A stretch of 64,000 nt of DNA from the NCBI GenBank assembly GCA_021811155.1, contig JAJZPO010000001.1, forward strand, positions 1,683-65,682. Reading direction: 5' to 3'. The notes under the pieces are model-generated. The model was not told where the DNA came from, did not search any database, and saw only the letters and a program-made list of their open reading frames with translations. Made by a program: the position numbers and the translations under genes. Positions within the stretch are counted from its first letter, which is position 1. Each line of letters starts with the position of its first letter. Positions 254 to 50,609 of this stretch are shown here, in pieces. The DNA comes from Bacillota bacterium (GTDB lineage Bacteria; Bacillota; Desulfitobacteriia; Desulfitobacteriales; JAJXUE01).

Positions 254-283
254 CGAACCTCGAACCTCGAACTTCGAACTTCG
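254..283. repeat. Tandem heptamer array (CGAACCT x2, CGAACTT x2)
   Basis: Four perfectly phased 7-nt units read directly at 254-281 plus a partial unit. It is the reverse complement of the AGGTTCG array at 25962-25996. Confidence 0.85.
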
Positions 284-4751: not shown

Positions 4752-4790
4752 CTTGCTAGGACAACGGGGACGGTTCTGGGCGTCCTAGCG
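4752..4790 (+). repeat. Conserved-core hairpin repeat (CTAGGAC-stem type)
   Basis: Starts one nt after the glmE stop. CTTGCTAGGAC...GTCCTAGCG encloses GGGGACGGTTCT (4766-4777). Confidence 0.85.
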
Positions 4791-4888: not shown

Positions 4889-6142
4889 GTGAAAATCGTC
4901 GAAGTACTAGCTGCGCCAGGACTTACAGGTTTCTATTTTGATGACCAGAAGGCCATCAAGCTGGGGGCGGAACAAGATGGGTTTTCCTACACCGGGGAGC
5001 CCAAAACCCCTGGCTTTACGGCAGTGCGCCAGCGCGGCGAGTCTATATCCGTGCTGCTTGTGCTTGAGGACGGGCAGGTGGCTTACGGAGACTGTGCCGC
5101 TGTACAGTACTCGGGAGCGGGGGGGCGGGACCCATTGTTCCTGGCGGAAGAGTTTATCCCGTTAATTATGGAAGAAATAGCTCCTCACCTGGAGGGAAGG
5201 GAACTGGACTCCTTCCGGCAGCTGGCCGAAGAAGTTGAAGCCTTGCGCCGCCCCAACGGGGAGGTCTACCACACGGCCATCCGGTATGGGGTGAGCCAGG
5301 CCATCCTGGATGCGGTGGCCAAGGCCCGGCATGTTAGCATGACAGAGATAATCGCCAAGGAGTACGACCTGCCCATTCAGGCTGAGCCGGTGCCGGTGTT
5401 CGCCCAGACCGGGGATGACAGGTATCTGAACGCGGACAAGGCTATCTTGAAGCGGGCGGATGTGCTCCCCCACGGGCTGATAAATAATGTGGAGAGCAAG
5501 CTTGGGCGCCGTGGCGAGAAGCTCATGGACTATGTCCGCTGGCTGAAAAACAGGGTCCTGGAACTGGGGGACCCGGCCTACCGCCCTGTGCTTCACATCG
5601 ATGTCTACGGCACCATCGGCCTTGCCCTCGGGGAGGATACGGAGAGGATGGCTGAGTACCTCGGCCAGTTGGGTGAAGCGGCCCAGCCACTTAAGCTCAG
5701 GATCGAGGGCCCTATGGACGCGGGGAGCAAGGAGGGCCAGATCAGGGCCCTGAAGGAACTTCGCCTGGCTTTGGAGGCGCGGCAGATCCCGGTGGAGATA
5801 GTGGCGGATGAGTGGTGCAACACTTATGAAGACATTGTGGAATTCGTGGACGCAGGAGCGGGCCACATGGTTCAGATCAAGACCCCGGATTTGGGCGGGA
5901 TTCAAAACTCCATAGCCGCGGTGCTCTACGCCAAAAAGCGCGGGGTCAAGGCTTATCTGGGGGGGTCCTGCAATGAAACCGACTGCGGCGGCAGGGCCTG
6001 TGTCCATGTGGCCCTGGCCACCCGCCCTGACCAGATGCTGGCCAAGCCCGGGATGGGTGTGGACGAGGGTTTTATGATTGTACGCAATGAGATGAACCGC
6101 ACCCTGGCCCTGCTGCACCACTTGCTTGCGGGCAGGGATTGA
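4889..6142 (+). CDS. mal: 3-methylaspartate ammonia-lyase (beta-methylaspartase)
   Basis: VKIVEVLAAPGLTGFYFDDQKAIK...ESISVLLVLEDGQVAYGDCAAVQYSGAGGRDPLF follows the clostridial methylaspartase N-terminus almost residue for residue. SD GGGAGG at 4876-4881 then GTG 4889. Confidence 0.92.
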   Translation: MKIVEVLAAPGLTGFYFDDQKAIKLGAEQDGFSYTGEPKTPGFTAVRQRGESISVLLVLEDGQVAYGDCAAVQYSGAGGRDPLFLAEEFIPLIMEEIAPHLEGRELDSFRQLAEEVEALRRPNGEVYHTAIRYGVSQAILDAVAKARHVSMTEIIAKEYDLPIQAEPVPVFAQTGDDRYLNADKAILKRADVLPHGLINNVESKLGRRGEKLMDYVRWLKNRVLELGDPAYRPVLHIDVYGTIGLALGEDTERMAEYLGQLGEAAQPLKLRIEGPMDAGSKEGQIRALKELRLALEARQIPVEIVADEWCNTYEDIVEFVDAGAGHMVQIKTPDLGGIQNSIAAVLYAKKRGVKAYLGGSCNETDCGGRACVHVALATRPDQMLAKPGMGVDEGFMIVRNEMNRTLALLHHLLAGRD

Positions 6143-6182
6143 GGGTCGGGAGTCAGAAGTCAGGAGTCAGGAGTCAGAATGG
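6143..6182 (+). repeat. Tandem heptamer array (GGGTCGG GAGTCAG AAGTCAG GAGTCAG GAGTCAG AATGG)
   Basis: Begins immediately after the mal stop codon. Period-7 repetition read directly. Confidence 0.85.
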
Positions 6183-6270
6183 TTTTAGTATGCTTATACT
6201 GCGATTGGGATCTTCGCATTGCTCTGAAGAAAGACCCATGGATCTTGGGGCCTGAAGAAAGGGATAAGGC

Positions 6271-7245
6271 GTGAAAATTGGGCTAACCACCACTGTGCCG
6301 GTGGAAGTGATTTTCGCCGCGGGCCATACTCCCGTGGACATCAACAATATATTTATCGGTGATCAGAACCCCATGCACCTGGTGGAGGAAGCGGAGATTG
6401 CCGGTTACCCGCGCAACGTGTGCGGCTGGATCAAGGGCCTCTATGCTACCGTGCTGCGCGAGGAGGATATCCGGGCCGTGGTGGCTGTGACCCAGGGTGA
6501 CTGCTCCAACACCCATGCCCTGATGGAGACCTGGCAGCACAAGGGGATCGAAATCATTCCCTTTGCTTTTCCCTATGACCGGGACTACGACATGCTGAAG
6601 CTCCAGATTGAGAAGCTGATACAGGTTTTGGGCACGGATTGGGAGCAGACGGTCAAGTGGAAGAAAAATTTGGACGAGGTGCGCAGCCTTGCCTGGGAGC
6701 TGGACCGGCTGACATGGGAAGAGAACCGGGCGACCGGGTTTGAAAACCACCTGTGGCAGGTATCCAGCAGCGACTTCAACGGGGATCCGGACAAATTTGC
6801 CCGGGACCTGGCAGGAGCGCTGGCGGAGGCCCGGGCCAGAGAGCCCCTGGCCCCGGCCCTGCGCCTCGGCTTTATTGGGGTGCCGCCAATAGTGCCTGAG
6901 TTGTACGATTACCTGGAGGCCCAGGGGGCCAGGGTGGTGTTCAATGAGGTGCAGCGCCAGTTCAGCATGCCTTTTCAGGTGGAGGACCTGGTGGAGCAGT
7001 ACCGCCTCTACACCTACCCCTACAATGTCTTCGGCAGGATTGAAGATATCAAGCGCCAGGCTGAGCTGCGCCGCCTGGACGGGTTGATCCACTATACCCA
7101 GAGCTTTTGTTTCCGGCAGATTGAGGACCTGATTATCCGCCAGGAAATCGATTTGCCGATTCTCACCCTGGAGGGGGACAGCCCCACCCGCCTGGACGCC
7201 CGCAGCAAGATGCGGCTGGACTCCTTCATCGAGATGCTTAAATAG
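6271..7245 (+). CDS. 2-hydroxyacyl-CoA dehydratase family (HgdB/BcrB-like, HGD-D) Fe-S protein, single subunit
   Basis: 324 aa. N-terminus GLTTTVPVEVIFAAGHTPV and three spaced Cys (NVCGW, GDCSN, SFCFRQ) as in the D-component of ATP-activated radical dehydratases. Only one such subunit gene is present. Confidence 0.7.
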   Translation: MKIGLTTTVPVEVIFAAGHTPVDINNIFIGDQNPMHLVEEAEIAGYPRNVCGWIKGLYATVLREEDIRAVVAVTQGDCSNTHALMETWQHKGIEIIPFAFPYDRDYDMLKLQIEKLIQVLGTDWEQTVKWKKNLDEVRSLAWELDRLTWEENRATGFENHLWQVSSSDFNGDPDKFARDLAGALAEARAREPLAPALRLGFIGVPPIVPELYDYLEAQGARVVFNEVQRQFSMPFQVEDLVEQYRLYTYPYNVFGRIEDIKRQAELRRLDGLIHYTQSFCFRQIEDLIIRQEIDLPILTLEGDSPTRLDARSKMRLDSFIEMLK

Positions 7246-7265: not shown

Positions 7266-7291
7266 GGTCGGAATTCAGGAGTCAGAATGGG
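7266..7291 (+). repeat. Heptamer array (GGTCGGAATTCAGGAGTCAGAATGGG)
   Basis: Lies 21 nt after the stop at 7245. Same terminal GAGTCAGAATGG as the arrays at 6143, 7542 and 50396. Confidence 0.8.
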
Positions 7292-7308: not shown

Positions 7309-7334
7309 GTGTCAGGGGGACTGTCCCCGTGACA
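7309..7334. repeat. Palindromic repeat GTGTCA-GGGGGACTGTCCCC-GTGACA
   Basis: Imperfect palindrome read directly. Sister copies at 10136-10164 and 50560-50586. Confidence 0.8.
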
Positions 7335-7393
7335 TTGCATGCCGCTACGCGGCACCACTTATGAATGAAACGAGAGCTTGCTAGCAGCAGAGT

Positions 7394-7541: not shown

Positions 7542-7565
7542 GGCAGGAGTCAGGAGTCAGAATGG
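7542..7565 (+). repeat. Heptamer array (GGCAGGAGTCAGGAGTCAGAATGG)
   Basis: Direct repeat of the 7266-7291 array. It flanks the long hairpin on the other side. Confidence 0.8.
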
Positions 7566-8345: not shown

Positions 8346-8403
8346 GGCAGGAATCGCGGGTCGGAAATCGGCTTGAGGGTAATAAGCTAGAGGTGATGCA
8401 AAC

Positions 8404-10106: not shown

Positions 10107-10219
10107 CAGAAGTCAGGAGTCAGGAGTCAGAATAAAGTGTCAGGGGGACTGTCCCTGTGACACTCTGGTTCATTCATCAGTGGTGCCGTGAAGCGGCATG
10201 CAAGTCTGAATTCCGACCC
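10107..10219. repeat. Composite repeat: forward heptamer array, GTGTCA palindrome, GAATGAA/GCATGCCGC module, reverse heptamer array
   Basis: CAGAAGTCAGGAGTCAGGAGTCAGAAT (10107-10133), palindrome (10136-10164), a module that is the reverse complement of 7336-7372, then AGTCTGAATTCCGACCC (10203-10219). The ends are inverted relative to each other. Confidence 0.75.
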
Positions 10220-12065: not shown

Positions 12066-13502
12066 TTGCCAATAAGAAACAGATCCAAACGAAAGAAAAT
12101 TATTTTTCTAGTTTACGCAACTGTATTCGCCTTTTTCATCTTTAAAATGTTCTTCTATGCACACTTCGTAGGCAGGTTTCCCGATGAAGTTGCACATATT
12201 TCCTACATAGCTTATTTGGAACAAGAGCATAAAATTATTCCTGATTTTAAAAGCATGACTATCTTAATCCCAAAAGAAAAAAATAACGATTTGTCAGCTG
12301 TAAAAGATATTCTTGTGTCCTACCCCGGCCCGTATATATTCGGCGAAAGTGTGAACTACCTTGGTCATCCTCCGCTCTATTATCAGCTCATGCGGTTGTC
12401 CGGAGGGGTAAAAGTTCAAAATGGGGTTGCAAGTATTGATATCTGGCGGCTCAGGTACTTTAATATGGTCCTAAGCGCTTTTGCCATGCTGCTTATTTTT
12501 TATATCGGTTATAGCCGAATTCGAGATATTCCGATTCTTCACCTGTTGTTTGCCACAATTTGTGTATCTGTGCCAATGCTCGCATATGTCTCCGCCGGGG
12601 TAAATAACGACAACCTGGCTCTGCTCGGGGTATCCTTGTCCGTCTTGGGCTTGCTGCGTTTCTCCGAACACAAACGTACTTTTTTCACTTATAGCTTGTT
12701 AAGTATTGGACTTTATATTTCTGTTATGTCCAAGCTGACAGCAGGACTCATCGTGCTGCTCGCGTTTGCATTGTACCTTGTTTTTGCGCTCATAACGGAA
12801 AAGAACCTGCGATTTCTAAAATCAAAGGAATTTCTTGTGACCCTGCCTGTCTATCTCATAGCTGCTGCTTATTTTGCGTTAGTTCATATGCAAACCGGCA
12901 GTTTTCAGCCCAGCTATCGCTTGTTGGATCTACAGGGTTACCTTGCATCCGATTTTTATGTTCCTCCTGCCAGTCGAACCCATATGGATTTCTTACAGTA
13001 TGCAAAATACTATATTGCAGCTTTCCTGGGTACGTGGACGGGTATCGCGTCCAACGTTTCCTTGTTGAAAGATGAGACAGCGCTTTATTCCCTGCCTCAA
13101 ATTGGGCTGGTTGGGCTCCTGGTTCTGCCGCTCTTGCTGAGTCTACAGTTAGGTAAAAACAGGCCCGAACGGCCGGCAGCGCTGGCGTTGTTTGCTTTCT
13201 ACCTCGGCCTGATAATTACCATGATAGTTCAATTTTTGCGCGCTTATTTGGAATACAAAAACATTTCCGGATATCTTGGGGGATATCAGTCCCGTTATTA
13301 CCTTTGCGGAATTGCCGCAATAGCGTTGGCAACTGTTTTTGCTGCCGGCAACATCTACGGCAAGGAAACGGGGAAACAAGGGCGCGGGCCGGCAAGAATC
13401 ATAAGACAAATGACCGTCCAATTTGCCGCTTTTGCCTTCGTTCTTTTACTGCTGTATGAGGATTTTGGCTTTTTTCTCAAGCATTTTACGGATTATCTTT
13501 AA
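12066..13502 (+). CDS. GT-C fold membrane glycosyltransferase (ArnT/PMT/YfhO-like)
   Basis: 478 aa and polytopic. First extracytoplasmic loop has FVGRFPDEVAHISY (acidic DE motif). TTG start behind GGAGTG. AT-rich codon usage differs from the flanking regions. Confidence 0.65.
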   Translation: MPIRNRSKRKKIIFLVYATVFAFFIFKMFFYAHFVGRFPDEVAHISYIAYLEQEHKIIPDFKSMTILIPKEKNNDLSAVKDILVSYPGPYIFGESVNYLGHPPLYYQLMRLSGGVKVQNGVASIDIWRLRYFNMVLSAFAMLLIFYIGYSRIRDIPILHLLFATICVSVPMLAYVSAGVNNDNLALLGVSLSVLGLLRFSEHKRTFFTYSLLSIGLYISVMSKLTAGLIVLLAFALYLVFALITEKNLRFLKSKEFLVTLPVYLIAAAYFALVHMQTGSFQPSYRLLDLQGYLASDFYVPPASRTHMDFLQYAKYYIAAFLGTWTGIASNVSLLKDETALYSLPQIGLVGLLVLPLLLSLQLGKNRPERPAALALFAFYLGLIITMIVQFLRAYLEYKNISGYLGGYQSRYYLCGIAAIALATVFAAGNIYGKETGKQGRGPARIIRQMTVQFAAFAFVLLLLYEDFGFFLKHFTDYL

Positions 13503-13533
13503 TCCCAAAAATAACGTTGGTGGTGCAAATTAA

Positions 13534-14589
13534 ATGAAATTGATAATTCAGATACCCTGTTACAACGAGGAAAAGACCCTGGCCCAGACATTCAATGATC
13601 TTCCCCAAGCCATATCCGGCGTTGACAGTATTGAATACCTGATTATCAATGACGGCAGCACGGACAGGACTGTACAAGTGGCCAAGAAATTGGGCATCCA
13701 ACATGTGGTTACCTTTAAGCGCAACAGAGGACTGGCCGCGGGTTTCATGGCTGGAATCGAAGCCTGTCTGCGCCTGGGAGCGGACATAATTGTAAACACT
13801 GACGCAGACAATCAGTATCGCGGCGAGGACATTGCCAGAATTGTTAAGCCAATAATTGACGGCAAGGCGGAAATTGTGGTTGGCAGCCGCCCTATTGACG
13901 AGATTGAGCACTTTTCAAGACGGAAAAAATTGCTCCAGCATCTGGGAAGTTGGGTGGTGCGGTTAGCTTCGGACACCGACATCCCCGACGCGCCCAGCGG
14001 TTTCAGGGCTTACTCCAGAGAGGCTGCCATGCGGCTTAACGTTGTAAATCAATACACCTATACCTTGGAGACCATAATACAAGCCGGGCATAACAGGATT
14101 GCCATTACCTCCGTACCCATCCGCACCAACCCTGAGACGCGCAAGTCACGCCTATTCAAGAGCACATTTGGTTATGTTAAACGCTCAGCCAGTACGATCA
14201 TTCGCGCATTTATGATGTACAAGCCCCTGCGTTTTTTTGGCATCCTGGGATCTCTCATTTTCCTAATGGGTCTCTTGATAGCGGTGCGCTTTCTGTTTCA
14301 CTACCTGTTTAGCACCGGTACGGGACATTTGCAGTCGCTTATTCTCTCGGCAGTATTGATGCTGTTAGGCTTCCAAACATTCGTTGCGGGTTTGCAGGCA
14401 GATATCATAGCGGCTAACCGCAAGCTGTTGGAGGATATTCAATACCGGGTGCGCAACCTTGACTATGCTTCCGGTACCGAAGCTGGCATGAAGAGGATAA
14501 AGAATGAGCAGAATCAATACAGCGAAAAACTATCTTACCACACGGGCCGGGGGAAAGAACGTTCTGTTCATTACCACCAAAAACATTGA
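13534..14589 (+). CDS. GT2 polyprenyl-phosphate glycosyltransferase (GtrB/CsbB/ArnC-like) with C-terminal TM helices
   Basis: IQIPCYNEE...INDGSTD...NTDADNQY (DXD) GT-A signatures, plus two C-terminal hydrophobic helices (FFGILGSLIFLMGLLIAV, LILSAVLMLLGFQTFVAGL). Confidence 0.8.
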   Translation: MKLIIQIPCYNEEKTLAQTFNDLPQAISGVDSIEYLIINDGSTDRTVQVAKKLGIQHVVTFKRNRGLAAGFMAGIEACLRLGADIIVNTDADNQYRGEDIARIVKPIIDGKAEIVVGSRPIDEIEHFSRRKKLLQHLGSWVVRLASDTDIPDAPSGFRAYSREAAMRLNVVNQYTYTLETIIQAGHNRIAITSVPIRTNPETRKSRLFKSTFGYVKRSASTIIRAFMMYKPLRFFGILGSLIFLMGLLIAVRFLFHYLFSTGTGHLQSLILSAVLMLLGFQTFVAGLQADIIAANRKLLEDIQYRVRNLDYASGTEAGMKRIKNEQNQYSEKLSYHTGRGKERSVHYHQKH

Positions 14590-15523
14590 TTACATACGAA
14601 ACACTCAGGAAATAGAGGCTCTCAGCAGCGCGAAATCCATCAAGGTTTTGGGATATCCAGATAAGGGTTATCTCTCCCGTCTCATCAAGGTTTACTTTAA
14701 GTTGATGACTTGGTCTATGAAACGGTACGATTTGGTTTATGTCGGTTTTGCCCCCCAGCTTATTATCCCTCTATTTGGCTGGCGGTTCAGGCACAAAATT
14801 GTTGTGCAGGATTTTTTCATCTCCCTCTACGATACCATGGTATGGGACCGAAAAAAGTTTAAAGACAAGGGCTTGGCCGCCAAAATTCTGGCCTGGCTGG
14901 ATAAATTCACTATTAACCGGGCAAACGCGGTGATAACTGATACCCTGGCCCACGCTGAATATTTTGTACGGGAGTTTGGTGTCGATCCTGGAAAGCTGAA
15001 GGTGCTGTACCTTGAGGCTGATCCGGTGATTTACTACCCACGTCAGGCGGTAAAACCTGTGGAATGGCAGAACAAGTTCGTAGTATTATATTTTGGCAGT
15101 GTACTCCCCCTCCAGGGAGTAGATACTGTTCTGGCGTGCGTCAAGCGGATGGAGGGTATTTCATCTGTAGTTTTTGATATTATTGGCCCGGTGGCGAAAA
15201 AAGATCTGCAGCAGTACGCAAAACTTCACAACGTCCGTTTTACTCCCTGGCTTTCCCAGGCGGACCTGGCTGAAAGGATTGCGGCGGCAGATTTGTGTCT
15301 TGCCGGCCATTTCAACAAAACTATCGCCAAAGCGTCCCGTACCATACCCGGCAAGGCGTATATATACCGCGCCATGGGCAGGCCTGTGATTTTAGGCGAT
15401 AACCCTGCCAATCGTGAACAGTTCAGCGAAGACAAGATGAATTTCTATGTTGAAATGGGCAGCGCCGGGAAGCTACAAGAAAAGATACTTTATGCCATGA
15501 GCTGTTTGGGGCTTAGTCATTAA
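14504..15523 (+). CDS. GT-B fold glycosyltransferase (family 1/4-like)
   Basis: 339 aa. NVLFITTKN first strand and a C-terminal GKAYIYRAMGRPVILGD nucleotide-sugar-binding region. ATG 14504 sits behind GAGGA. Overlaps the previous CDS by 86 nt. Confidence 0.65.
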   Translation: MSRINTAKNYLTTRAGGKNVLFITTKNIDYIRNTQEIEALSSAKSIKVLGYPDKGYLSRLIKVYFKLMTWSMKRYDLVYVGFAPQLIIPLFGWRFRHKIVVQDFFISLYDTMVWDRKKFKDKGLAAKILAWLDKFTINRANAVITDTLAHAEYFVREFGVDPGKLKVLYLEADPVIYYPRQAVKPVEWQNKFVVLYFGSVLPLQGVDTVLACVKRMEGISSVVFDIIGPVAKKDLQQYAKLHNVRFTPWLSQADLAERIAAADLCLAGHFNKTIAKASRTIPGKAYIYRAMGRPVILGDNPANREQFSEDKMNFYVEMGSAGKLQEKILYAMSCLGLSH

Positions 15524-15579
15524 ATCAAACAGTCTGTATGGCGCCGGCGTGGATAAAATCAGCAAGAAGTGAGTAGACC

Positions 15580-16500
15580 TTGAAAACTAAACTGCTTAAA
15601 TACGTTGGATACGGTGTTACAGTGGCGGCATTTGCCTTTCTGGCCAGATCCGTTGCATCAATGCATTTGGATTTTTCCCGCCTCATCAATCCCTTTGCTG
15701 CGGTAAGCTGCGGCTTAATACTCTCGCTTGGTTATGCCGGCATTGTTTACTTATCCGCTTATGCGTGGAAAATGGTTCTAGAATTCATCCGCGGGAGTAA
15801 AATCTCGTATCGGGATGTGACCGGTGTCTACATTAAGGCCAATCTGGGCAAGTATTTTCCCGGCAACGTAATGCACTTTGCAGGGCGCAACCTCCTGGCC
15901 GGTAAATTAGGATTTAAGCAGATGGATGTAACTTTCAGCAGCGCCGTTGAAGTCTTGGCCTTAATTGCGACTGCCGTCATTTGGTCTATACTTCTGGCTC
16001 TGCAGAGGTTTACTTCAATACTCGGAAATATCCTTAATAGGACAGATGCAGCGGTGTTTGGCGTAATCGCCGCTTTCTTGTTTGGAGCGGCGGTTCTGGG
16101 TTGGGCTGCCATAACAAAAGGCAGCTATCTCCAGAAATACAGGCGCTTTTTCACGCGCGGATTCCTCAAACTTCTCGGCAAGCTGTTCTCTGTCTACAGC
16201 CTGACTTTAATTATTCCGGGAATCTTTCTGGTGATGATATTCGCTCTGGTGCTTGGATTCCAGGTGACTCCGCAAAACGCTTTAGTCATAATATCGGCAT
16301 ACATCATCTCATGGGTGGCTGGGTTTATTGTCCCTGGGGCGCCAGGCGGCATGGGTGTTCGCGAGTCTGTTTTGCTCCTCGTGCTTGGACCAATGTATTC
16401 GGGTGATTTGGCGGTGTTGGCAGCAATACTTCACCGCCTGGCATCGATGTTAGGTGATGCAGCAGCCTTTCTGGTTGAATCGGGCAGACGCCCGAAGTGA
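15580..16500 (+). CDS. Flippase-like membrane protein (lysyl-PG synthase TM-region/UPF0104 family)
   Basis: 306 aa, about 8 TM segments. C-terminal VPGAPGGMGVRESVLLL motif is typical of this family. Confidence 0.6.
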   Translation: MKTKLLKYVGYGVTVAAFAFLARSVASMHLDFSRLINPFAAVSCGLILSLGYAGIVYLSAYAWKMVLEFIRGSKISYRDVTGVYIKANLGKYFPGNVMHFAGRNLLAGKLGFKQMDVTFSSAVEVLALIATAVIWSILLALQRFTSILGNILNRTDAAVFGVIAAFLFGAAVLGWAAITKGSYLQKYRRFFTRGFLKLLGKLFSVYSLTLIIPGIFLVMIFALVLGFQVTPQNALVIISAYIISWVAGFIVPGAPGGMGVRESVLLLVLGPMYSGDLAVLAAILHRLASMLGDAAAFLVESGRRPK

Positions 16501-16550
16501 AACTTAACATGAGACACCGCAGGGCATAATGAAAGGCAGGCTGGATAAAG

Positions 16551-17852
16551 ATGAAGATAGCGGTTGCTGGTACAGGGTATGTAGGGCTGGTCACAGGAGT
16601 GTGTCTGGCCTACATGGGGCATGTCGTGACATGTGTGGACACGGACGAAAGAAAAATAGCCCTGTTGCAGGCCGGTAAACCTTTGATTCATGAAGAAGGT
16701 CTGGAGCAATTGATGCTGCAGACCAGGGAGCGGCTCAGTTTTACGCCGGATTTTGCATCTGCCTACCAGGATGCGGAGGTAATTTTTATAGCCGTGGGTA
16801 CGCCGGATAAAAAGGACGGCTCAGCAAATCTCATCTATGTATACAATGCCGCAAGGCAGATCGCCGCAAACATAAAAAACGACTGCTTAGTCGTTGTCAA
16901 ATCCACAGTTCCCATAGGCACCGGCGAGATCATAGAGGCAAGATTGAAAGCCGGATTACCATGCCGGGTGCGCGTTGAAGTCGCATCAAACCCCGAGTTT
17001 CTTTCCCAGGGAACGGCGGTGCGAGAAACTCTTCACCCCTCCCGTATTGTGCTGGGGGTGGAATCCGAGCGGGCCGAGAAGCTTCTGCGCAAGGTTTATG
17101 CAGGCTTTGATGGTCCTATACTGGTTACCAGCCGTCACAGCGCTGAAATGATCAAATATGCCTCAAACAATTTTCTGGCGTTAAAGATTTCATACGTCAA
17201 CGAAATTGCCAACCTGTGTGAGGTGACCGGGGCGGACATTTCGGAAGTAACAGAGGGAATGGGTCTGGACCCGCGGATTGGGTCTCATTTTCTTAGGGCC
17301 GGGGTAGGTTATGGCGGATCCTGTTTCCCAAAGGACACAAAAGCTCTGCACTGGCTGAGCAGCATGTATAAACATGAGCTTAAGACTGTTCGCGCCGCAA
17401 TAGACGTAAATGAAAAGCAAAAAACCGTACTGATAAGGAAAGCTCATAAATACTATCCCAACTTGGCGGGGATCAATGTTGCCGTGCTTGGACTCACCTT
17501 TAAGCCGGGTACAGACGATTTGCGTGAGGCCCCTTCCCTGGCTTGCATACCTATGCTGTTGACAGAGGGAGCTTATATTCGTGCCTGGGATCCTGTCGGC
17601 AGGGCAAATTTCAGCAAATTGTACCCGCAGGGAATTACATACTGTGAGAATATAGGGGAAACACTGGACATGGCAGATATCTGTTTCATTTTTACCGAAT
17701 GGCCTGAAATAAAACAACTTGACCTGGATGAATTTACGCGACGGATGAAAAAACCTGTGGTATTGGATGGGCGCAACTGTTTCCGGCTCAGCAACGTGCG
17801 CGGTAAAGGAATATTGTACGAATCCATAGGCCGTGCCATAGTACATGGTTAA
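16551..17852 (+). CDS. ugd: UDP-glucose 6-dehydrogenase
   Basis: MKIAVAGTGYVGLVTG Rossmann N-terminus, catalytic GGSCFPKDT motif, 433 aa. Confidence 0.9.
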   Translation: MKIAVAGTGYVGLVTGVCLAYMGHVVTCVDTDERKIALLQAGKPLIHEEGLEQLMLQTRERLSFTPDFASAYQDAEVIFIAVGTPDKKDGSANLIYVYNAARQIAANIKNDCLVVVKSTVPIGTGEIIEARLKAGLPCRVRVEVASNPEFLSQGTAVRETLHPSRIVLGVESERAEKLLRKVYAGFDGPILVTSRHSAEMIKYASNNFLALKISYVNEIANLCEVTGADISEVTEGMGLDPRIGSHFLRAGVGYGGSCFPKDTKALHWLSSMYKHELKTVRAAIDVNEKQKTVLIRKAHKYYPNLAGINVAVLGLTFKPGTDDLREAPSLACIPMLLTEGAYIRAWDPVGRANFSKLYPQGITYCENIGETLDMADICFIFTEWPEIKQLDLDEFTRRMKKPVVLDGRNCFRLSNVRGKGILYESIGRAIVHG

Positions 17853-17903
17853 TATATATCGATGAGGAAACGGTAGCCTATGCCTTCCGGATGGATGTCA
17901 ATT

Positions 17904-17952
17904 GCGAGAACACATGTGCCCCGCTTGTTTGGCGGGGCACATGTGTTCTCGC
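17904..17952. terminator. Bidirectional terminator hairpin (21-bp perfect stem)
   Basis: GCGAGAACACATGTGCCCCGC (17904-17924), loop TTGTTTG, GCGGGGCACATGTGTTCTCGC (17932-17952). Located between the convergent ugd and RND genes. Confidence 0.75.
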
Positions 17953-17968
17953 TGCAGCGAGGCTCGAC

Positions 17969-20900
17969 TCACTTGGCTGAATCTGGGATGGATTGGGCTT
18001 TAGGGGCACGGGAGAAGACACGGCTGCGCACCGCGTCTAATACCTGGTAGGCTACCGGTACGATGAGCAGGGTGAGCAAGGTGGAGGTGGTGAGACCGGA
18101 GATTACCACCACTGCCATGGAGCGGGATATGAGCCCGCCCTCGTGGGAAACAGCCAAAGGCAGGAGGGCGCCTACGGTGGCTACGGCGGTCATCAGAATG
18201 GGCCTGAGCCGGGTGACCCCTGCTTCCACCAGAGCATCTTTCATAGCCAGGCCCTGCTTGCGGTTTTTGAGCGCCCGGTCCATCAAGACGATGGCATTGG
18301 TCACCACGATGCCGATGAGCATCAGGAAGCCCACCAGGGCGGGCATGCCCAGAGCCTCGCCGGAAAGGTACAGGCCGATCAGCCCGCCGGTAAAGATAAA
18401 GGGCAGGGAGAAGAGAATGGCGATGGGGGCCAGCATTTCGCCGAAGGCTACCATCATCACGGCGTAGACCATGAAGATTGCCGCGACCATGGCAAAAATC
18501 ATGTTCTTGAAGCCGTCGGACATGGCCTTGGACTCACCTTCGTAGTAATAGCTGACACCTTGAGGCAGGTTCAGAGCTTTGATGCGGGCGTCAACGTCTT
18601 TCTGCACGCCGGAAGAGTTGTCGGTGGTGAAGCGGCCTGTGACCGAGATGTATTCCTGCTGGTTCAGGCGCTGAATCGAAGTGGGGCCGGGCTTCTCGTC
18701 GATTTTTGCCACATCGGACAGCTTTACCTGACCGCCGGTCATGTTGGCGATTGTCTGGCTGCGGATAACGTCCAGGCTGTTGAGAGCTCCGGTTTTCAAA
18801 CCCAGGTTCACCGGGGTGGTGCGGCCGTCCAGGGTAACGTCCATCACATCGTCGCCGTTGATCATCTGGCGCACGGCCAGGGCTACCATGGCCGGGTTAA
18901 GGCCGTTTTTGGCCGCGGCATCCGGTTTGACATCGATGGAGAGCTGAGGTTTTACCGCGGACAGGTTGGTTTTCACGTTGGCGAGCCCGGGGACGGTCTT
19001 GATGGCGTTAACCATCTTGTCGCCGGCTTCCTTCAGAGCGTTAAGATCCGGGCCGTTGACCACGATGAACAGGCCGCCGTAGCCGGTCATTCCCAGGGGG
19101 GAGAGGGCGGTTTGCACATCCGGGCCCAGGCTGTTTGTTATCTGCTGCATATCCTGTTCGAATTTTTTCGTTTGATCCAGGGTAACGTTGGGATCCAACT
19201 CGATGCCGATTCTTAAATTCTCGCCGTTAACGCTGGTCTGGTAGCTTTTCATCCCGGGGTAATTGCGCAGGGACTGTTCGATCTTGGCGGCTGCCTGGTT
19301 GGTCTTTTCCGTAGCGGTGCCTACGGGCATGGTTGCAGTTAGGGAGTAGGACACTGTTTTCTCGGAAGGCAGGAAGTTTTGGGGAATCCTGGAGACCAGG
19401 GCCAGGGATGCGCCAAAGACCAGGAGGGACAGGGCGGCGATAACCAGCTTGTGCCTGAGGGACCAGTTGAGTACGGTGCGGTAGGTGCGCTGCAATATGT
19501 TCTCTCCTGCCTCCCGGTGCCTGATGCCCAGGAGAAAGAGGCGGGCAAGCAGAGGGACGACGGAAATCGCCACCAGGAGAGAGAAGACCAATGAAACCAC
19601 TACGGTGACTCCAAAGGGGGCGAAGAATTTGCCTACAATCCCCGGCACGAAGGAGAGGGGACCAAAGACGGCCACGGTGGTGATGGTGGAGGAGGTAACA
19701 GCGGGGGACACTTCCTTGGCTGCCCTGAGCACCAGGTCCAGGGAACGCTCCTCGCTGGTGCGGACGTGGCGGTAAATATTCTCCATCACCACGATGGAGT
19801 CGTCCACAACCCGGCCTACGGCAACGGCGATGCCCGCCAGGGTCATGATATTCAGGCTGTAATCCAGCCAGTAAAGCACCATCATGGAAGCGAAAATTGA
19901 CAAGGGTATGGAAAGTATGGCCACCAGGGTGGAACGCCAGTTGCGCAGGAAGAGGAAGGTGACCAGCATGGCGAAGAGGGCGCCGAGGAGGGCTTCGCGC
20001 AGCATAACGTCAACGGATTTTTTGATCTGGACTGAGTTGTCCTGGAGCTTAGCCAGGTGATAGCCGGCGGGGAGATTGATTCCCGCCAGCTTGGCGTTGA
20101 TGTCATTCACTGCTTCTACCGTGTTCGTGCCGGCCTGGGTAAAGATGTCCGTCACCACGGCCGGTTCCCCGTTCAGGCGGGTGATGACCGTATCTTTGTC
20201 AGGCGCGTAGGACACAGTGGCGATGTCCGAGAGCTTGATGGTGCGGATCTTCAGGGCGGGGGCGGCTGAGACATCGCCGCTTCGCTTCGGAGCGGAGGTG
20301 CCGGAGAGGCTTTGCAGGGCTGAGGCCGTATCCCCGCCGGAAGCGTTGACCTGGTCCTGGAGCTGGGTGAGCTGGGTCTGCAAACCGCTTAGCTGGGCTT
20401 GTTCAGCGGCGATCTTTTGGTTTTGGACTGCGATCTGCTGCTGCAGGGCTGCCGCTGCGGTTTGGTCTGTGGTGCTTTGCAGGGCTGTGCCGAGGGCTTG
20501 CAGTTTTGACTGGTCGGCCAAGAGGGTCATAGAAAGGCCGTTGATGCCCTGGATGAGCTGGATCTGGCCCTGCAAAAGCATCTGGCCCTTGGTCAGGCTG
20601 CCTACCCCCTGGCCCAGCTTGCCCAGGGAGGAGCCGAGGGAGCTGAAGCCGTCCCCGACGCTCTTAAAGGCATCGGTGAGGCTGCTCATGTCCTGGTCTA
20701 TTACCACCAACTCCAGGTTTTTGGCGTCATCCAGGGAATGGATTTTTTTGCCCACTTCCACGTTCAGGCCTTTGTCTGCCAGGGTGACCTGTCCGGCGGG
20801 AATGGAGATGTTATTGGCCTGGAGCGCCTGTTTGATTTTATCCAGGCTGAGGTTATACTCTTTCATTTTGTCGGGGTCAACCCGTATGTACAGCTTCTTC

Positions 20901-21436
20901 TCGGACTGGCCCTGTACTTCCACATTGGAAATTCCAGGGGCGGAGGCGAGAGCCGGTTTGATGTGGTCTTCGACATACTGCTGGATGCTGGCCTGGTCGG
21001 TGTTGGCCGTAATGCCGAAGGAGTAAATGGCCTCGGCGTTGGGTCCCTGCTTGGAAATCTGCGGCTTTTGGGCCCCCTCAGGCAGCTTTAGCCCGGCCAG
21101 GGCGCTCGTGACATCTTTCTCCGCGTCGCTCATGGACTGTTTCATGTCAAATTCCAAAGTGGCGGCAACATAGTTGCTGCCTGAGGTAACGTAAAGGTTC
21201 TTTAGGTTATTGATGCCCGACAGGGCCTGTTCCAGGGGTTTGCCCACGTCATCCAGGGCCTGATGGGGGTTGGCGCCTGGATAAAGCACCACAACAGACA
21301 AATAGGGAATATCCACGTTGGGCATATTCTCCTGCTTCATGTTCAGAACCGAGTAGACTCCCCCGGCCAGAATCATCAGCATGGCCAGGAAAATTACCCC
21401 GGCGTTTTGCATCGAAAATTTGATCCACCTATTCAT
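17969..21436 (-). CDS. RND-superfamily efflux transporter (AcrB/SwrC-like) with ~150-aa Q-rich coiled-coil insertion
   Basis: 12-TM RND architecture. MNRWIKFSMQNAGVIFLAMLM start sits behind GGGAGGAAAAGGA, so ATG is at 21436; the first 23 track codons are discarded. The insert is encoded at 20249-20695. Confidence 0.85.
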   Translation of the reverse strand: MNRWIKFSMQNAGVIFLAMLMILAGGVYSVLNMKQENMPNVDIPYLSVVVLYPGANPHQALDDVGKPLEQALSGINNLKNLYVTSGSNYVAATLEFDMKQSMSDAEKDVTSALAGLKLPEGAQKPQISKQGPNAEAIYSFGITANTDQASIQQYVEDHIKPALASAPGISNVEVQGQSEKKLYIRVDPDKMKEYNLSLDKIKQALQANNISIPAGQVTLADKGLNVEVGKKIHSLDDAKNLELVVIDQDMSSLTDAFKSVGDGFSSLGSSLGKLGQGVGSLTKGQMLLQGQIQLIQGINGLSMTLLADQSKLQALGTALQSTTDQTAAAALQQQIAVQNQKIAAEQAQLSGLQTQLTQLQDQVNASGGDTASALQSLSGTSAPKRSGDVSAAPALKIRTIKLSDIATVSYAPDKDTVITRLNGEPAVVTDIFTQAGTNTVEAVNDINAKLAGINLPAGYHLAKLQDNSVQIKKSVDVMLREALLGALFAMLVTFLFLRNWRSTLVAILSIPLSIFASMMVLYWLDYSLNIMTLAGIAVAVGRVVDDSIVVMENIYRHVRTSEERSLDLVLRAAKEVSPAVTSSTITTVAVFGPLSFVPGIVGKFFAPFGVTVVVSLVFSLLVAISVVPLLARLFLLGIRHREAGENILQRTYRTVLNWSLRHKLVIAALSLLVFGASLALVSRIPQNFLPSEKTVSYSLTATMPVGTATEKTNQAAAKIEQSLRNYPGMKSYQTSVNGENLRIGIELDPNVTLDQTKKFEQDMQQITNSLGPDVQTALSPLGMTGYGGLFIVVNGPDLNALKEAGDKMVNAIKTVPGLANVKTNLSAVKPQLSIDVKPDAAAKNGLNPAMVALAVRQMINGDDVMDVTLDGRTTPVNLGLKTGALNSLDVIRSQTIANMTGGQVKLSDVAKIDEKPGPTSIQRLNQQEYISVTGRFTTDNSSGVQKDVDARIKALNLPQGVSYYYEGESKAMSDGFKNMIFAMVAAIFMVYAVMMVAFGEMLAPIAILFSLPFIFTGGLIGLYLSGEALGMPALVGFLMLIGIVVTNAIVLMDRALKNRKQGLAMKDALVEAGVTRLRPILMTAVATVGALLPLAVSHEGGLISRSMAVVVISGLTTSTLLTLLIVPVAYQVLDAVRSRVFSRAPKAQSIPDSAK

Positions 21437-21569
21437 TCCTTTTCCTCCCAAACCACTTTCTTGCTTCACCAAGGGTATTACGCAACATGCCGCCGGATGT
21501 TCCACCTAGCGCCTGCAAATTATAGCTTATGCATTGTGTGCTTACCACAGTATATTATATCATGAGCTT

Positions 21570-21598
21570 GAGGAATTCAGGAGTCAGAAGTCAGAATA
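21570..21598 (+). repeat. Heptamer array (GAGGAATTCAGGAGTCAGAAGTCAGAATA)
   Basis: Period-7 units read directly in the RND/P-loop divergent spacer. Confidence 0.8.
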
Positions 21599-21650
21599 GG
21601 ACAAAGGGGACGGTTCCGTTGGACAAAGGGGACGGTTCCGTTTGTCCTAG
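21599..21650 (+). repeat. Tandem pair of conserved-core hairpin repeats (GGACAAA-stem type)
   Basis: GGACAAAGGGGACGGTTCCGTT occurs twice, followed by TGTCCTAG. Cores at 21606 and 21628. Confidence 0.85.
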
Positions 21651-21748
21651 TGGGATTCACGCTATATGTGACCATCAGCCAGTTGAGGTTCCGGGTTGAA
21701 GCAAGAACCGTCACCAGACACGCTAAGCATATCTGTATCGACACCATT

Positions 21749-21783
21749 TGCTAGGACGTTTAGAACCGTCCCCGTTGTCCTAG
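21749..21783 (-). repeat. Conserved-core hairpin repeat (CTAGGAC-stem type), inverted orientation
   Basis: TTGCTAGGACGTTTAGAACCGTCCCCGTTGTCCTAGA is the reverse complement of the 1305/4752 type. Core at 21762-21773. Confidence 0.85.
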
Positions 21784-21886
21784 AATCTTGAAGCTCTCCA
21801 TTTCAATGGAGAGTAGTTCACTTGTGCATAAGTTGGAAAAGGGCTACAATGAATAGAGAATTTTCCCTCAGGTAAAGCTAGTCGAG

Positions 21887-24174: not shown

Positions 24175-24225
24175 ACTCAGGGGTCGGAACTCGGGGGTCA
24201 GAACTCAGAACTCAGGAGTCAGAAT
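24175..24225 (+). repeat. Heptamer array, 7 units (TCAGGGG TCGGAAC TCGGGGG TCAGAAC TCAGAAC TCAGGAG TCAGAAT)
   Basis: Starts at the first nt after the rdgB stop codon. Period 7 read directly. Confidence 0.85.
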
Positions 24226-25961: not shown

Positions 25962-25996
25962 GTTCGAAGTTTGAGGTTCGAGGTTCGATTTAGAAT
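25962..25996. repeat. Heptamer array (GTTCGAA GTTTGAG GTTCGAG GTTCGAT TTAGAAT) in the tRNA spacer
   Basis: Period-7 units. Reverse complement of the 254-283 array. Ends in AGAAT like the GAGTCAG arrays. Confidence 0.8.
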
Positions 25997-32631: not shown

Positions 32632-33622
32632 AATTACGCTTGCCCACGGCAGCGGGGGGGGAATGTCATCCCGCCTGATAGCGGATGTCTTTTACGACGC
32701 CTTCGGCACCGACGGGGCAAAGGCCAACGACGCAGCTGTCCTGAGTCTGGCCGGGGGCAAGCTGGCTTTTACCACTGACAGTTTTGTAGTCAGTCCGCTT
32801 TTTTTCCCGGGCGGAAACATAGGCAAGCTGGCCTTTTGCGGCACTGTAAATGATTTGGCCACAGCCGGAGCCAAACCGGTGGCACTGGCGGCTTCCTTCA
32901 TAATTGAAGAGGGCCTGGAACTGGAAGAACTGCGCCTTATCGCCCGGACCATGGGCGAATTAGCAGCGGAAACAGGCATCCCGATTGTTACCGGGGATAC
33001 CAAGGTGGTGGAGAAGGGCAGCGCCGACAAGGTCTTTATCACCACCAGCGGCGTTGGCATTGTACCCGGTGAGCTTAACTACCATCCCGGCAGAATTGCC
33101 CCCGGGGATGCGATTATCGTCAGCGGCACAATAGGCGATCACGGTTACTGCATAACGGCCCTGCGGGAAGGAATCGCTATCAAAAGCAATGTCACAAGCG
33201 ACTGCCAGCCCCTGCACACTATGGTGTCCTCTTTGTCCAGCCTGGGTGACGGTGTACATGCCGTGCGCGACGCCACCAGGGGCGGTGTGGGAACCGTGCT
33301 GAACGAATGGGCCGCCCAAGCCGGGCAGGAAATAGTTATCTCGGAGGGACTGCTGCCGGTCCTGGACGAGGTGAGGGGAGGCTGCGGCATGCTGGGTCTG
33401 GAGCCCTTATACCTGGCCAATGAAGGAAAGATGCTGTTTGCGGTATCTGCCGGCCTGGCTGATAGAGCTTTGTCCATTCTGCGTCAACACCCGGCGGGTC
33501 GAGACGCGGCCGTAATCGGCCGGGTCAACCCCGGAGAGCCCAGGCTGCTGCTGGAAACTGAGTGGGGGACCAGACGCATTGTGCCGGTGCCGGTAGGGGA
33601 AATACTGCCGCGGATATGCTGA
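32621..33622 (+). CDS. hypE: Hydrogenase maturation carbamoyl dehydratase HypE
   Basis: ITLAHGSGG N-terminus, PurM/AIR-synthase-like fold, C-terminal PRIC motif. ATG 32621 overlaps the hypD end by 11 nt. Confidence 0.9.
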   Translation: MPAKITLAHGSGGGMSSRLIADVFYDAFGTDGAKANDAAVLSLAGGKLAFTTDSFVVSPLFFPGGNIGKLAFCGTVNDLATAGAKPVALAASFIIEEGLELEELRLIARTMGELAAETGIPIVTGDTKVVEKGSADKVFITTSGVGIVPGELNYHPGRIAPGDAIIVSGTIGDHGYCITALREGIAIKSNVTSDCQPLHTMVSSLSSLGDGVHAVRDATRGGVGTVLNEWAAQAGQEIVISEGLLPVLDEVRGGCGMLGLEPLYLANEGKMLFAVSAGLADRALSILRQHPAGRDAAVIGRVNPGEPRLLLETEWGTRRIVPVPVGEILPRIC

Positions 33623-33624
33623 AA

Positions 33625-33703
33625 CAGAAGTCAGAAGTCAGAAGTCAGAAGACAGGAGTCAGGAGTCAGGAGTAAGAAGTTGGAAGCCAGAAGCCAGAAA
33701 GCC
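33625..33703 (+). repeat. Longest heptamer array (~11 units: AGAAGTC x3, AGAAGAC, AGGAGTC x2, AGGAGTA, AGAAGTT, GGAAGCC, AGAAGCC...)
   Basis: Starts 3 nt after the hypE stop. Period 7 read directly, with progressive degeneration toward the 3' side. Confidence 0.85.
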
Positions 33704-33754
33704 GGTAGTCGAGTCGGACTGAGTGGACAGAGAGAAAAAAGAACAGCTCCAAGT

Positions 33755-33786
33755 ATTCTGACTCCTGACTACTGACTCCTGAATTC
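33755..33786 (-). repeat. Inverted heptamer array (ATTCTGACTCCTGACTACTGACTCCTGAATTC)
   Basis: Reverse complement GAATTCAGGAGTCAGTAGTCAGGAGTCAGAAT. It can pair (19 bp, 1 mismatch) with 33654-33672. Confidence 0.85.
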
Positions 33787-33813
33787 TTGGTCATGCAAGA
33801 AAGGTGGTTGTGA

Positions 33814-45790: not shown

Positions 45791-45795
45791 ACAGA

Positions 45796-45830
45796 GTGAG
45801 TCAGTTGGGGACGGTTCTTGGTTGACTCAC
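45796..45830 (+). repeat. Conserved-core hairpin repeat (GTGAGTCA-stem type)
   Basis: GTGAGTCA...TGACTCAC encloses GGGGACGGTTCT (45807-45818). Twin copy at 50464-50498. Confidence 0.85.
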
Positions 45831-45838
45831 TTTCCGTG

Positions 45839-45905
45839 GGATAAAGGGGACGGTTCTGTTTGTCCTATCCACTAGGACCAACAGAACCGTCCCCTTTATC
45901 CTAGC
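45839..45905. repeat. Inverted pair of conserved-core repeats forming a ~30-bp-arm hairpin
   Basis: GGATAAAGGGGACGGTTCTGTTTGTCCTA (45839-45868) and its near reverse complement CTAGGACCAACAGAACCGTCCCCTTTATCCTAGC (45872-45905). Confidence 0.85.
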
Positions 45906-47760: not shown

Positions 47761-47822
47761 ATTCTGAATTCCGACCTTGAATTGAGCCCATGAGCCGATT
47801 TCTGAATTCTGAGTTCCGACCC
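47761..47822 (-). repeat. Two reverse-orientation heptamer arrays
   Basis: ATTCTGAATTCCGACC (47761-47776) and GATTTCTGAATTCTGAGTTCCGACCC (47797-47822). Their reverse complements read GGTCGGAATTCAGAAT and GGGTCGGAACTCAGAATTCAGAAATC. Confidence 0.8.
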
Positions 47823-50395: not shown

Positions 50396-50427
50396 GTTGG
50401 ACTTCTGGGTCGGAATACAGAATGGGT
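50396..50427 (+). repeat. Degenerate heptamer array (GGTTGGACTTCTGGGTCGGAATACAGAATGGG)
   Basis: Lies 14 nt after the lon stop. Same ...TCGGAAT.CAGAATGGG ending as 7266-7291. Confidence 0.7.
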
Positions 50428-50432
50428 TGAGT

Positions 50433-50586
50433 AGGACACCGGGGACGGTTCTCGTTGTCCTAGTGAGTCAGTTGGGGACGGTTCTTGATTGACTCACTTT
50501 TGTCAGAGTCACTTGGGGATGGCGATTGGTTGACTCCCCCTTTGTGTCAGACGTGAGAGTGTCAGAGGGACTGTCCCCGTGACACC
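50433..50586 (+). repeat. Four concatenated hairpin repeats of different stem types
   Basis: TAGGACA..TGTCCTA (50433-50463, core at 50442); GTGAGTCA..TGACTCAC (50464-50498, core at 50475); GAGTCA..TGACTC with degenerate core GGGGATGGCGAT (50507-50537); GTGTCAGAGGGACTGTCCCCGTGACAC (50560-50586). Confidence 0.85.
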
Positions 50587-50609
50587 CTGAAAAGGCTGGT
50601 AATTACGGT

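Follow-up and report, generated by a model that had tools for sequence, protein, structure and literature searches.

Heptanucleotide arrays behind stop codons of a Bacillota bacterium as candidate arms of a palindromic element resembling rRNA intervening sequences

What are the tandem heptanucleotide arrays that begin right behind stop codons in an uncultured Bacillota bacterium, and how do its operons come to tolerate them? We analyzed a stretch of 64,000 nucleotides (positions 1,683 to 65,682 of contig JAJZPO010000001.1, GenBank assembly GCA_021811155.1; hereafter the window), in which an earlier note, made from the letters of the DNA, had listed 15 such arrays, mostly with units of the type GAGTCAG. 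The best explanation, to which we assign a probability of roughly 0.55, is that the arrays are arms of a polar palindromic intergenic element resembling the intervening sequences (IVS) of 23S rRNA, composed of a purine-rich (RAGTCAG)n arm, a loop and a complementary (CTGACTY)n arm, and that the copies in the window are gene-less versions of this element.

All 15 arrays are present, each at or within a few bases of its listed position when the sites are read one by one, and the same reading verifies the reverse-orientation copies as well as the second unit, AGGTTCG. The arrays consist of 3 to 11 head-to-tail units of 7 nt, as determined using Tandem Repeats Finder, which detects period-7 arrays at nearly every listed site, and our own periodicity detector, which finds nine arrays at period 7 in the window, none at periods 4-6 and 8-11, and four at period 12. 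A scan of both strands with the degenerate unit [AG][AG]N[TC]C[AG]G (at least two units) gives 20 hits, whereas 200 shuffled sequences give 2.6 on average and never more than 8. The 16-mer GGTCGGAATTCAGAAT is found nine times with up to three mismatches, against an expected 0.52, and GAGTCAG occurs 18 times while its complement CTGACTC occurs four times. In a crude gene map of the window, the coding fraction in long open reading frames (ORFs) is 0.92; every true array nevertheless falls outside the long ORFs, in intergenic DNA. Rfam finds only five tRNAs in the window and nothing on the arrays, which lie in mRNA or tRNA spacers and not in 23S rRNA.

The forward arrays share a tail, as had been claimed: six end in GTCAGAAT, and four carry CAGAATGG. 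The element also has a head that extends 5′ of the listed coordinates, reading GGCAGGGATTGAGGGTCGG at 6130 and GGCAGGAATCGCGGGTCGG at 8348. At 6130, the head lies inside the ORF of methylaspartate ammonia-lyase, the stop codon of which falls within the head, and the C-terminus of the lyase is remodelled in the window.

The position of the arrays right after stop codons is confirmed for five of them, which begin 0-2 nt 3′ of the genes for (identities from Pfam) methylaspartate ammonia-lyase (6143), BcrAD ATPase (8347), DUF4387 (10107), Ham1/RdgB (24175) and HypE (33625). If arrays were placed uniformly in the spacers, 0.26 would be expected at such positions among the seven arrays that lie downstream of a stop codon (P(≥4) ~3e-5). 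For statistics across phyla, we used 240 array-seeded loci from two scans with at least 120 loci each, namely: one genome per species, searched for three AGTCAGR units, and metagenomes, searched for an array plus tail. In these loci, the 5′ end of the forward arm lies at a median of 15-16 nt from a co-oriented stop codon (within 10 nt in 41 of 92 cases), and genes are more than 100 nt away on its 3′ side. In 19 of 54 cases (p = 1e-4), the stop codon falls into the register of the 7-nt units, most often with TAG in the place of CAG. Whichever frame is read, a forward array is free of stop codons and of ATG, GTG and TTG, and a reverse array contains TGA in all three; because of the latter, the short distances from reverse arrays to start codons arise in part from the calling of longest ORFs and were rejected as a signal.

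Among 194 forward arrays in the array-seeded loci, 87 have a reverse partner downstream within 1.5 kb, compared to nine in the opposite order (p = 4e-17). Thus, the basic object is a palindrome whose 5′ arm is rich in purines and whose 3′ arm is rich in pyrimidines, and this polarity accounts for the polar placement. The window contains two complete pairs, the other copies being solitary or decayed arms. In the larger pair (33625-33786), the longest forward arm of the window, with 11 units (33625-33703, plus strand), begins 2 nt after the HypE stop codon and forms a stem of ~30 bp with a reverse arm (33755-33786, minus strand) that lies 28 nt before the next start codon. In the smaller pair (10107-10219), the forward arm (10107-10133, plus strand) follows the DUF4387 stop codon at 0 nt, the reverse arm (10203-10219; GGGTCGGAATTCAGACT on the minus strand) lies 26 nt before the fumarase start, and a GGGGAC hairpin and a further module, module X, are enclosed between them. 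The regions 33615-33800 and 10100-10235 fold far better than their shuffles (z = -4.4 and -3.3, respectively), in contrast to the solitary array at 6143, for which no significant fold is predicted (z = -0.39).

A gene can occupy the loop of this palindrome. At one Bacillota locus, an array runs directly into ATGAGAAAACCAGCG..., which encodes MRKPAKTFEDLLVWQ, an N-terminus of the S23p type. When the ORFs of the 240 loci are all searched with a profile, eight S23p-like ORFs are identified, six of which are flanked by arrays in one fixed geometry. On the 5′ side, the forward array ends in ...GGAGTCAGA followed directly by the ATG start codon of S23p. On the 3′ side, the protein ends, in several phyla, in ...AILTPDS and the stop codon, which are encoded by GCC ATT CTG ACT CCT GAC TCC TGA, that is, by the reverse arm itself. 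The array-flanked ORFs match Pfam PF05635 (E = 1e-35) and NCBIfam TIGR02436 and are weakly similar to Avd; in the full element, the loop holds an S23p gene of ~120 codons for an Avd-like four-helix bundle. Its start site consists of the last AGGAG unit and the ATG (GGAGTCAGAATG), with AGGAG located 5-9 nt before the ATG. The cassettes fit closely between their neighbours: at L149, the frame of lysyl-tRNA synthetase reads through the arm and its TGA overlaps the S23p ATG, and at L199 the cassette takes up the whole space from a TAG stop codon to the start of a thiolase gene.

Since the array-seeded loci had been selected for arrays, we also took a sample blind to repeats, in which S23p genes were identified by tblastn against plasmids and the flanks of 12 loci were read. 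Tandem-repeat arms hug 10-11 of these 12 S23p ORFs, with a period of 7 in ~9-10 of them, whereas 50 kb of a Nostoc plasmid used as a control has only four period-7 arrays (p ~2e-6). In Nostoc punctiforme and Trichormus, AGTCAGR and AATTCAG arms begin right after the upstream stop codon and the 3′ end reads CCATTCTGACTCC; for the Nostoc cassette, the predicted fold has the two arms base-paired with each other on either side of the ORF (z = -3.4). Other S23p cassettes use other units, namely: AAAGCTA, GGTGACA, AAGGGAA, AGGGTGT and GCAGAAG, as well as one unit of 8 nt. Plasmid S23p genes lie between co-directional operon genes, including CRISPR-Cas operons on plasmids of Picosynechococcus, Pseudanabaena and Anabaena sp. 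90 (L265, L267 and L271), where they separate cas10/cmr2 from cmr3 once and cas6 from cas4 twice.

One S23p copy, from Azospirillum (L269), sits within 23S rRNA, as identified by Rfam (LSU, E = 2e-210), and its arms are built of CRGARGA units. In the IVS of Coxiella, S23p is preceded by GACAGAT heptamers, which differ in number from strain to strain and the first of which has an RNase III site (PMC4990558). S23p-bearing 23S rRNA IVS, such as those of Leptospira, Coxiella and Azospirillum, have the same architecture as the full element, with inverted purine-rich heptamer arms that pair into a long stem; written in the same rotation, the arm units are CRGARGA in Azospirillum, GACAGAT in Coxiella and CAGRAGT in the window. 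They differ from the window elements in that the latter lie in mRNA spacers, lack an S23p ORF and in several cases have a single arm, and RNase III cleavage would apply to them by analogy.

The arrays of the window carry the marks of such a cassette at their ends. The tail GAGTCAGAATGG matches the ribosome-binding site and ATG of S23p, and its reverse complement matches the S23p 3′ end. In addition, GGAGTCAGAATGG and CAGAATAA of the window match GGAGTCAGA plus ATG, CAGAATAA plus ATG and the reverse complement of GCCATTCTGACTCC at L253, L149, L263 and L264, and the alternative tail CAGAATAA also matches the 5′ arm of Trichormus.

If the arrays are indeed arms of an IVS-like element, the elements would fit without a gap between a stop codon and the ribosome-binding site of the gene that follows, and would be transcribed as part of operon mRNAs. 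The paired arms should fold into a long imperfect duplex that RNase III may cut, as it does in rRNA intervening sequences, which would cause little harm to the flanking cistrons. Arms built of tandem repeats could pair in many registers and would therefore tolerate slippage events that add or remove units. The arrays would also provide mutual homology between copies, making recombination and the swapping of cassettes possible. The elements themselves would be selfish or neutral passengers with a fast turnover, and any effects on host expression would be incidental.

Fast turnover is seen in the comparison with relatives. Orthologous glutamate-fermentation operons at 76-79% protein identity (L008-L013) contain no arrays, and their genes are tight or overlapping. 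At L005 (90% identity), the same gaps contain arrays, but the one after the lyase gene is built of AGGTTCG instead of GAGTCAG units, no array follows BcrAD, and hairpins stand in place of the DUF4387 array. The forward array after the HGD-D gene (7266-7291, plus strand, 20 nt after the stop codon) has three units in the window and five in the same place at L005, so that array length, which the earlier note had suggested comparing, does differ between related genomes. In the spacer between HGD-D and BcrAD, the window and L005 can be aligned only at the two ends, which bear arrays, and not in the middle, which is unrelated. The array at the BcrAD end (7542-7565, plus strand, two to three units, ~28 nt upstream of the BcrAD start) is identical at L005 from AGTCAGGAGTCAGAATGG on, with differences in its first few bases, and the remaining spacer is unrelated. 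The same array is an assembly breakpoint in L002 and L003: L002, a contig from an NCBI metagenome-assembled genome (MAG), ends there, and L003 (8850-9367), which belongs to the same species but comes from another sample, departs from the window inside the array and passes via a forward-plus-reverse pair into a NiFe-hydrogenase gene, which reflects either a chimeric assembly or a rearrangement that took place at the repeat. Four further contigs of the same species end within arrays. The arrays matter in practice too: they break short-read assemblies and can make chimeric joins in MAGs.

Several observations weigh against the IVS-like reading. No S23p ORF or remnant is found by jackhmmer, tblastn or profile HMM in the window or in the relatives L005, L121 and L039; the window copies are therefore gene-less. 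Paired arrays that are 300-600 nt apart mostly enclose no S23p, and only ~3% of AGTCAGR arrays carry S23p, for which reason the palindromic arrays may have existed first and S23p may have settled in them, rather than having given rise to them. Five to six arrays of the window, among them those at 6143, 7266, 7542, 24175 and 50396, are partnerless and can form no stem. When the element is compared with a miniature inverted-repeat transposable element (MITE), terminal inverted repeats are present as the paired arms, but no target-site duplication is seen at the junctions of 10107-10219, 33625-33786 and 47761-47822, and no transposase was found, S23p being the sole ORF found in full-length relatives and having no known recombinase activity. 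RNase III processing within mRNA is proposed by analogy with rRNA, and the ORF limits behind the cross-phylum statistics come from a crude longest-ORF caller. Finally, the 11-unit array is identical in five assemblies of the same species from other samples that span it. Slippage is therefore not fast on that time scale, and strain-level slippage was rejected for this array. The arrays are thus lineage-specific, replaceable and assembly-disrupting, and are not hypermutable on short time scales.

The arrays could instead be ordinary long simple-sequence repeats (SSRs), in which slippage seeds and expands heptamers that are tolerated only between genes, their co-location with S23p being coincidental. 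Heptanucleotides are the most abundant class of long SSRs in many prokaryotes, according to the summary of Mrazek (2007) given in PMC4679880. In agreement with this, unit number differs between the window and L005, half of the arrays in the window are solitary, and the carrier genomes hold many unrelated heptamers: the array-seeded loci contain 289 arrays at period 7 and at most 18 at any other period, with many unrelated units co-occurring. Slippage alone, however, leaves unexplained the strict forward-then-reverse order, the conserved head and tail sequences, the sharing of one unit by more than eight phyla among the matches listed, the S23p C-terminus encoded by the reverse arm in several phyla, and the arms at 10-11 of 12 independent S23p genes in the face of the rarity of arrays in the control 50 kb. 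We therefore consider this explanation unlikely, at about one chance in a few.

It is less likely still that the arrays serve the host after transcription, with purine-rich unstructured AGGAG tracts holding ribosomes or 30S subunits after termination and so preserving coupling or stabilising the mRNA in the manner of STAB-SD sequences, an idea akin to the ribosome docking or mRNA stabilisation proposed in the earlier note. The Shine-Dalgarno likeness on which this idea was built is real: arrays begin at stop codons, AGGAG, which the AGTCAGG units supply, is found in about half of the units and is complementary to the 3′ end of 16S rRNA, the tail reads AGGAG-N5-ATG, and a solitary array is predicted to be unstructured. 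The likeness is best explained, however, as the ribosome-binding site of S23p, and a role in host cistrons finds little or no support. AGAAG units, which make up about half, are as common as AGGAG, and other units that flank S23p, such as AAAGCTA and AGGGTGT, show no Shine-Dalgarno likeness. The orientation of arrays relative to flanking ORFs is even across phyla (27 co-oriented, 32 opposed), and 4 of the 13 main-type arrays of the window are reversed. Close relatives with the same operon lack the arrays. Many of the carrier phyla are not known to make much use of Shine-Dalgarno pairing, which also counts against ribosome docking. Avoidance of Rho, for which a G-rich sense strand would be preferred in operons, was likewise rejected, as there is no orientation bias between co-directional genes.

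The array behind the lyase gene offers a further argument for ribosome docking. It occupies 6143-6182 on the plus strand, 0 nt after the TGA of the lyase, and reads GGGTCGG, GAGTCAG, AAGTCAG, GAGTCAG, GAGTCAG and AATGG (entered in our feature list as GGGTCGG, five RAGTCAG units and the tail AATGG, with a head back to ~6130). The ATG in its tail, behind AGGAG (AGGAGTCAGAATG), opens an ORF of 31 codons (6179-6274, plus strand) whose stop codon, TGA, shares bases with the GTG start codon of HGD-D in a GTGA; in relatives of the window, the lyase gene itself overlaps the HGD-D start. The ORF is called as a gene in L001-L003 and has no Pfam match. It may restore translational coupling, or it may be due to chance. 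Tail ATGs seldom open long ORFs, and the array tail was accordingly rejected as a general gene start: apart from the 31-codon ORF, those of the window open an ORF of 15 codons (ATG at 7562, which was considered and rejected as an in-frame start of BcrAD) and two ORFs of two codons.

An action at the level of DNA, either as clustered sites for a global regulator or nucleoid protein or, as the earlier note had it, as dense GAGTC/GANTC methylation or restriction targets, is very improbable: five-unit MTYCTGA arrays of Geobacter metallireducens are annotated as ‘predicted global regulator binding sites’ (PMC2700814), deletion of heptamer repeats altered reporter output at recO in Nostoc (preprint) and many units do contain GAGTC, but many others, which had been thought to contain it without exception, do not (AATTCAG, AACTCAG and AAGCCAG), the number of GAGTC sites outside the arrays is at the level expected (67 against 61), units are degenerate within arrays and different between elements, placement tracks stop codons and not promoters, and there is no conservation across relatives.

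The arrays are not confined to the host of the window. Arrays of three AGTCAGR units are found at no fewer than 120 loci among species representatives, where by our estimate few would be expected by chance, and they occur in at least eight phyla among the matches listed. Of the carriers among these matches, ~45% are Cyanobacteria and ~20% Acidobacteriota, and others belong to Bacteroidota, Verrucomicrobiota, Nitrospirota, Planctomycetota and Chloroflexota. The remark that no equivalent was known from Firmicutes no longer holds, as at least five other Bacillota genomes, including that of Paradesulfitobacterium ferrireducens, carry the same arrays. The repeat class is thus widespread in bacteria and not specific to Firmicutes. 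Literature searches by sequence string and for a report of heptamers in Firmicutes found nothing relevant.

Comparison with the short tandemly repeated repetitive (STRR) sequences of cyanobacteria, drawn at first reading, proves apt: both are dispersed, non-coding tandem heptamers, and the identical unit is arrayed in Nostoc, Anabaena, Okeania and Microcystis, with AGTCAGR arrays also in Dolichospermum and Scytonema. With tandem 7-nt units, an excess at period 7 and non-coding dispersal (15 arrays in 64 kb), the arrays of the window belong to the heptameric long SSRs of STRR type. They are not STRRs in the strict sense, as the host is a Bacillota MAG and not a heterocystous cyanobacterium: the sporulation genes SpoIIR and GerM are present, the nearest named homologues of the window proteins are from Peptococcaceae and Desulfitobacteriaceae, and the window matches contigs of the uncultured MAG GCA_027420875.1 and of ENA assemblies. 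Classical STRR units are CCCCAGT, TTGGTCA and CAACAGT, which are unlike the unit of the window, and STRRs are not known to have been described as arms of S23p elements. The arrays represent a new host lineage for a known, unexplained repeat class.

Other heptamers share parts of this behaviour. The GGGAATC repeats of Xanthomonas and the GGGGAYT repeats of Nostoc are intergenic, with the 5′ end of the G-rich strand near the neighbouring ORF whatever its orientation; some overlap stop codons and some form inverted pairs, close relatives differ in the length and sequence of the repeats, and transcription is found for most of them (Rehm et al. 2015, PMC4692102). Their placement rule, inverted pairs and variation resemble those of the window arrays, and the array at 8347-8379 resembles GGRAATC, but the units of the window cannot form G-quadruplexes. 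Stop-codon placement itself is thus already reported for other heptamers in Xanthomonas and Nostoc; Rehm et al. (PMC4692102) found no link to a mobile element and do not mention S23p. The ‘class 3 global regulator binding sites’ of Geobacter metallireducens consist of five tandem heptamers of consensus MTYCTGA and are drawn as strand-switching pairs (PMC2700814). The reverse complement of this consensus, TCAGRAK, matches the unit TCAGRAG of the window, so that a matching consensus is already on record; these sites differ in numbering only 16, in belonging to a deltaproteobacterium and in that their reading as regulator sites is putative. TAACTGA repeats of Beggiatoaceae, Cyanobacteria and Bacteroidetes are patchy across phyla, intergenic by start or stop codons and missing from close relatives (MacGregor 2015, PMC4679880). 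They are similarly patchy heptamer arrays and co-occur with ours in the array-seeded loci, but have another unit, with stop codons on the forward strand, and lie mostly upstream of start codons. Repetitive extragenic palindromes and bacterial interspersed mosaic elements (REP/BIME), REPINs and MITE-type elements are likewise dispersed intergenic palindromes that break assemblies, the window elements forming mosaics with GGGGAC hairpins and module X. The arms in the window are, however, tandem heptamers and not unique inverted repeats, and neither a REP-associated tyrosine transposase (RAYT) or other transposase nor a target-site duplication is seen for them.

Tentatively, and at somewhat less than an even chance, the heptamer excess represented by STRR, GGGAATC, TAACTGA and MTYCTGA could be joined with S23p and IVS in one horizontally spreading family of palindromic cassettes, which would have arms that pair in multiple registers, lodge at stop codons and ribosome-binding sites or in 23S rRNA, be removed by RNase III, and in some cases encode an Avd-like protein with a possible affinity for the repeats; the window arrays would be gene-less copies. 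What is new here is the existence, across phyla, of heptamer arrays with a fixed polarity, a pairing rule and stop-codon placement, and the finding that S23p genes are as a rule flanked by heptamer arrays, one such gene lying within a true 23S rRNA intervening sequence. In the limited literature searched, we found no paper that gives the link between S23p and heptamers in this general form. If the IVS-like explanation is true, it would give a handle on the nature of STRR-like repeats, help to explain why operons tolerate them, and suggest a role for the abundant orphan Avd-like proteins.

The remaining arrays of the window are as follows. The BcrAD array (8347-8379, plus strand, 1 nt after the stop codon) is degenerate (GGCAGGAATCGCGGGTCGGAAATCGG...). 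The array after Ham1/RdgB (24175-24225, plus strand, at 0 nt) has seven units (ACTCAGG, GGTCGGA and similar) and no partner. In a divergent spacer, the array at 21570-21598 (plus strand) is followed directly on its 3′ side by tandem 22-mer hairpins and has a weak reverse partner at 21778-21796. Two reverse copies lie near lon: a short one at 47761-47776 (minus strand; GGTCGGAATTCAGAAT, identical to the consensus), which stands between lon and a terminator-like hairpin, and a second at 47797-47822 (GGGTCGGAACTCAGAATTCAGAAATC on the minus strand), identified by reading of the sequence and by the scans. Downstream of the same gene, 13 nt after the Lon stop codon, a degenerate forward array (50396-50427, plus strand) is followed by GGGGAC hairpins. 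The second unit variant, RRGTTCG, forms an array at 254-283 (minus strand, here as CGAACCT), 10 nt upstream of the start of a GntR-family gene, and another at 25962-25996 (plus strand, AGGTTCG), in the spacer between two tRNA genes within a cluster of five. Heptamer arrays directly 3′ of tRNA genes are seen both here and at L203.

The earlier note had also linked the arrays to a family of hairpins through the heptamer unit in their stems. GAGTCAG is indeed found within the GTGAGTCAG...TGACTCAC stems, and the link holds as co-occurrence: five of the nine forward arrays have a hairpin with a GGGGAC core within 20 nt downstream. The family has the core GGGGAC(G/T)GT(T/C)C and stems of the types CTAGGAC.., GTGTCAG.., GTGAGTCAG.. 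and GGACAAA.., and is located at 1304-1341, 4752-4789, 7309-7334, 10137-10162, 21599-21653, 21746-21783, 45795-45897, 50432-50500 and 50556-50588. GGGGAC hairpins are also present at L005 and at L121, a Bacillota MAG with arrays. A 35-nt module (TTGCATGCCGCT.CGCGGCACCACT.ATGAATGAA) occurs at 7335-7369 and 10169-10203, once per strand, and in both places has a GGGGAC hairpin and a heptamer array as neighbours. Intergenic DNA of the window looks like a mosaic of small modules.

Array-bearing DNA elsewhere has modules of its own. High-GC contigs from metagenomes and genomes share a conserved double hairpin (AAGGGCTTCGCCCTT, then AAATCCCTGGCGGGATTT) immediately 5′ of an AGTCAGR array (L137, L138, L141, L143, L157, L159, L186, L190, L196, L215, L237, L062 and L106), and this combined motif has no match in Rfam. 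In contigs of sample Ga0123353 (L144, L156, L161, L177, L178, L182, L187, L191, L213, L214, L221, L223 and L241), a dispersed repeat of ~230 bp has a heptamer array in its middle; it is found in several copies per contig, in both orientations and often at contig ends, and has a MITE-like look.

Lastly, positions 12066-21505 of the window form a block of ~10 kb with a lower GC content (0.46), which contains glycosyltransferases, a gene similar to UDP-glucose dehydrogenase and an ORF of 1178 codons on the minus strand. The block is probably an inserted island, since the fumarase and RNase PH/Ham1 genes that it separates adjoin in the relatives L009 and L012. At its right edge stand the array at 21570-21598 and the tandem hairpins.

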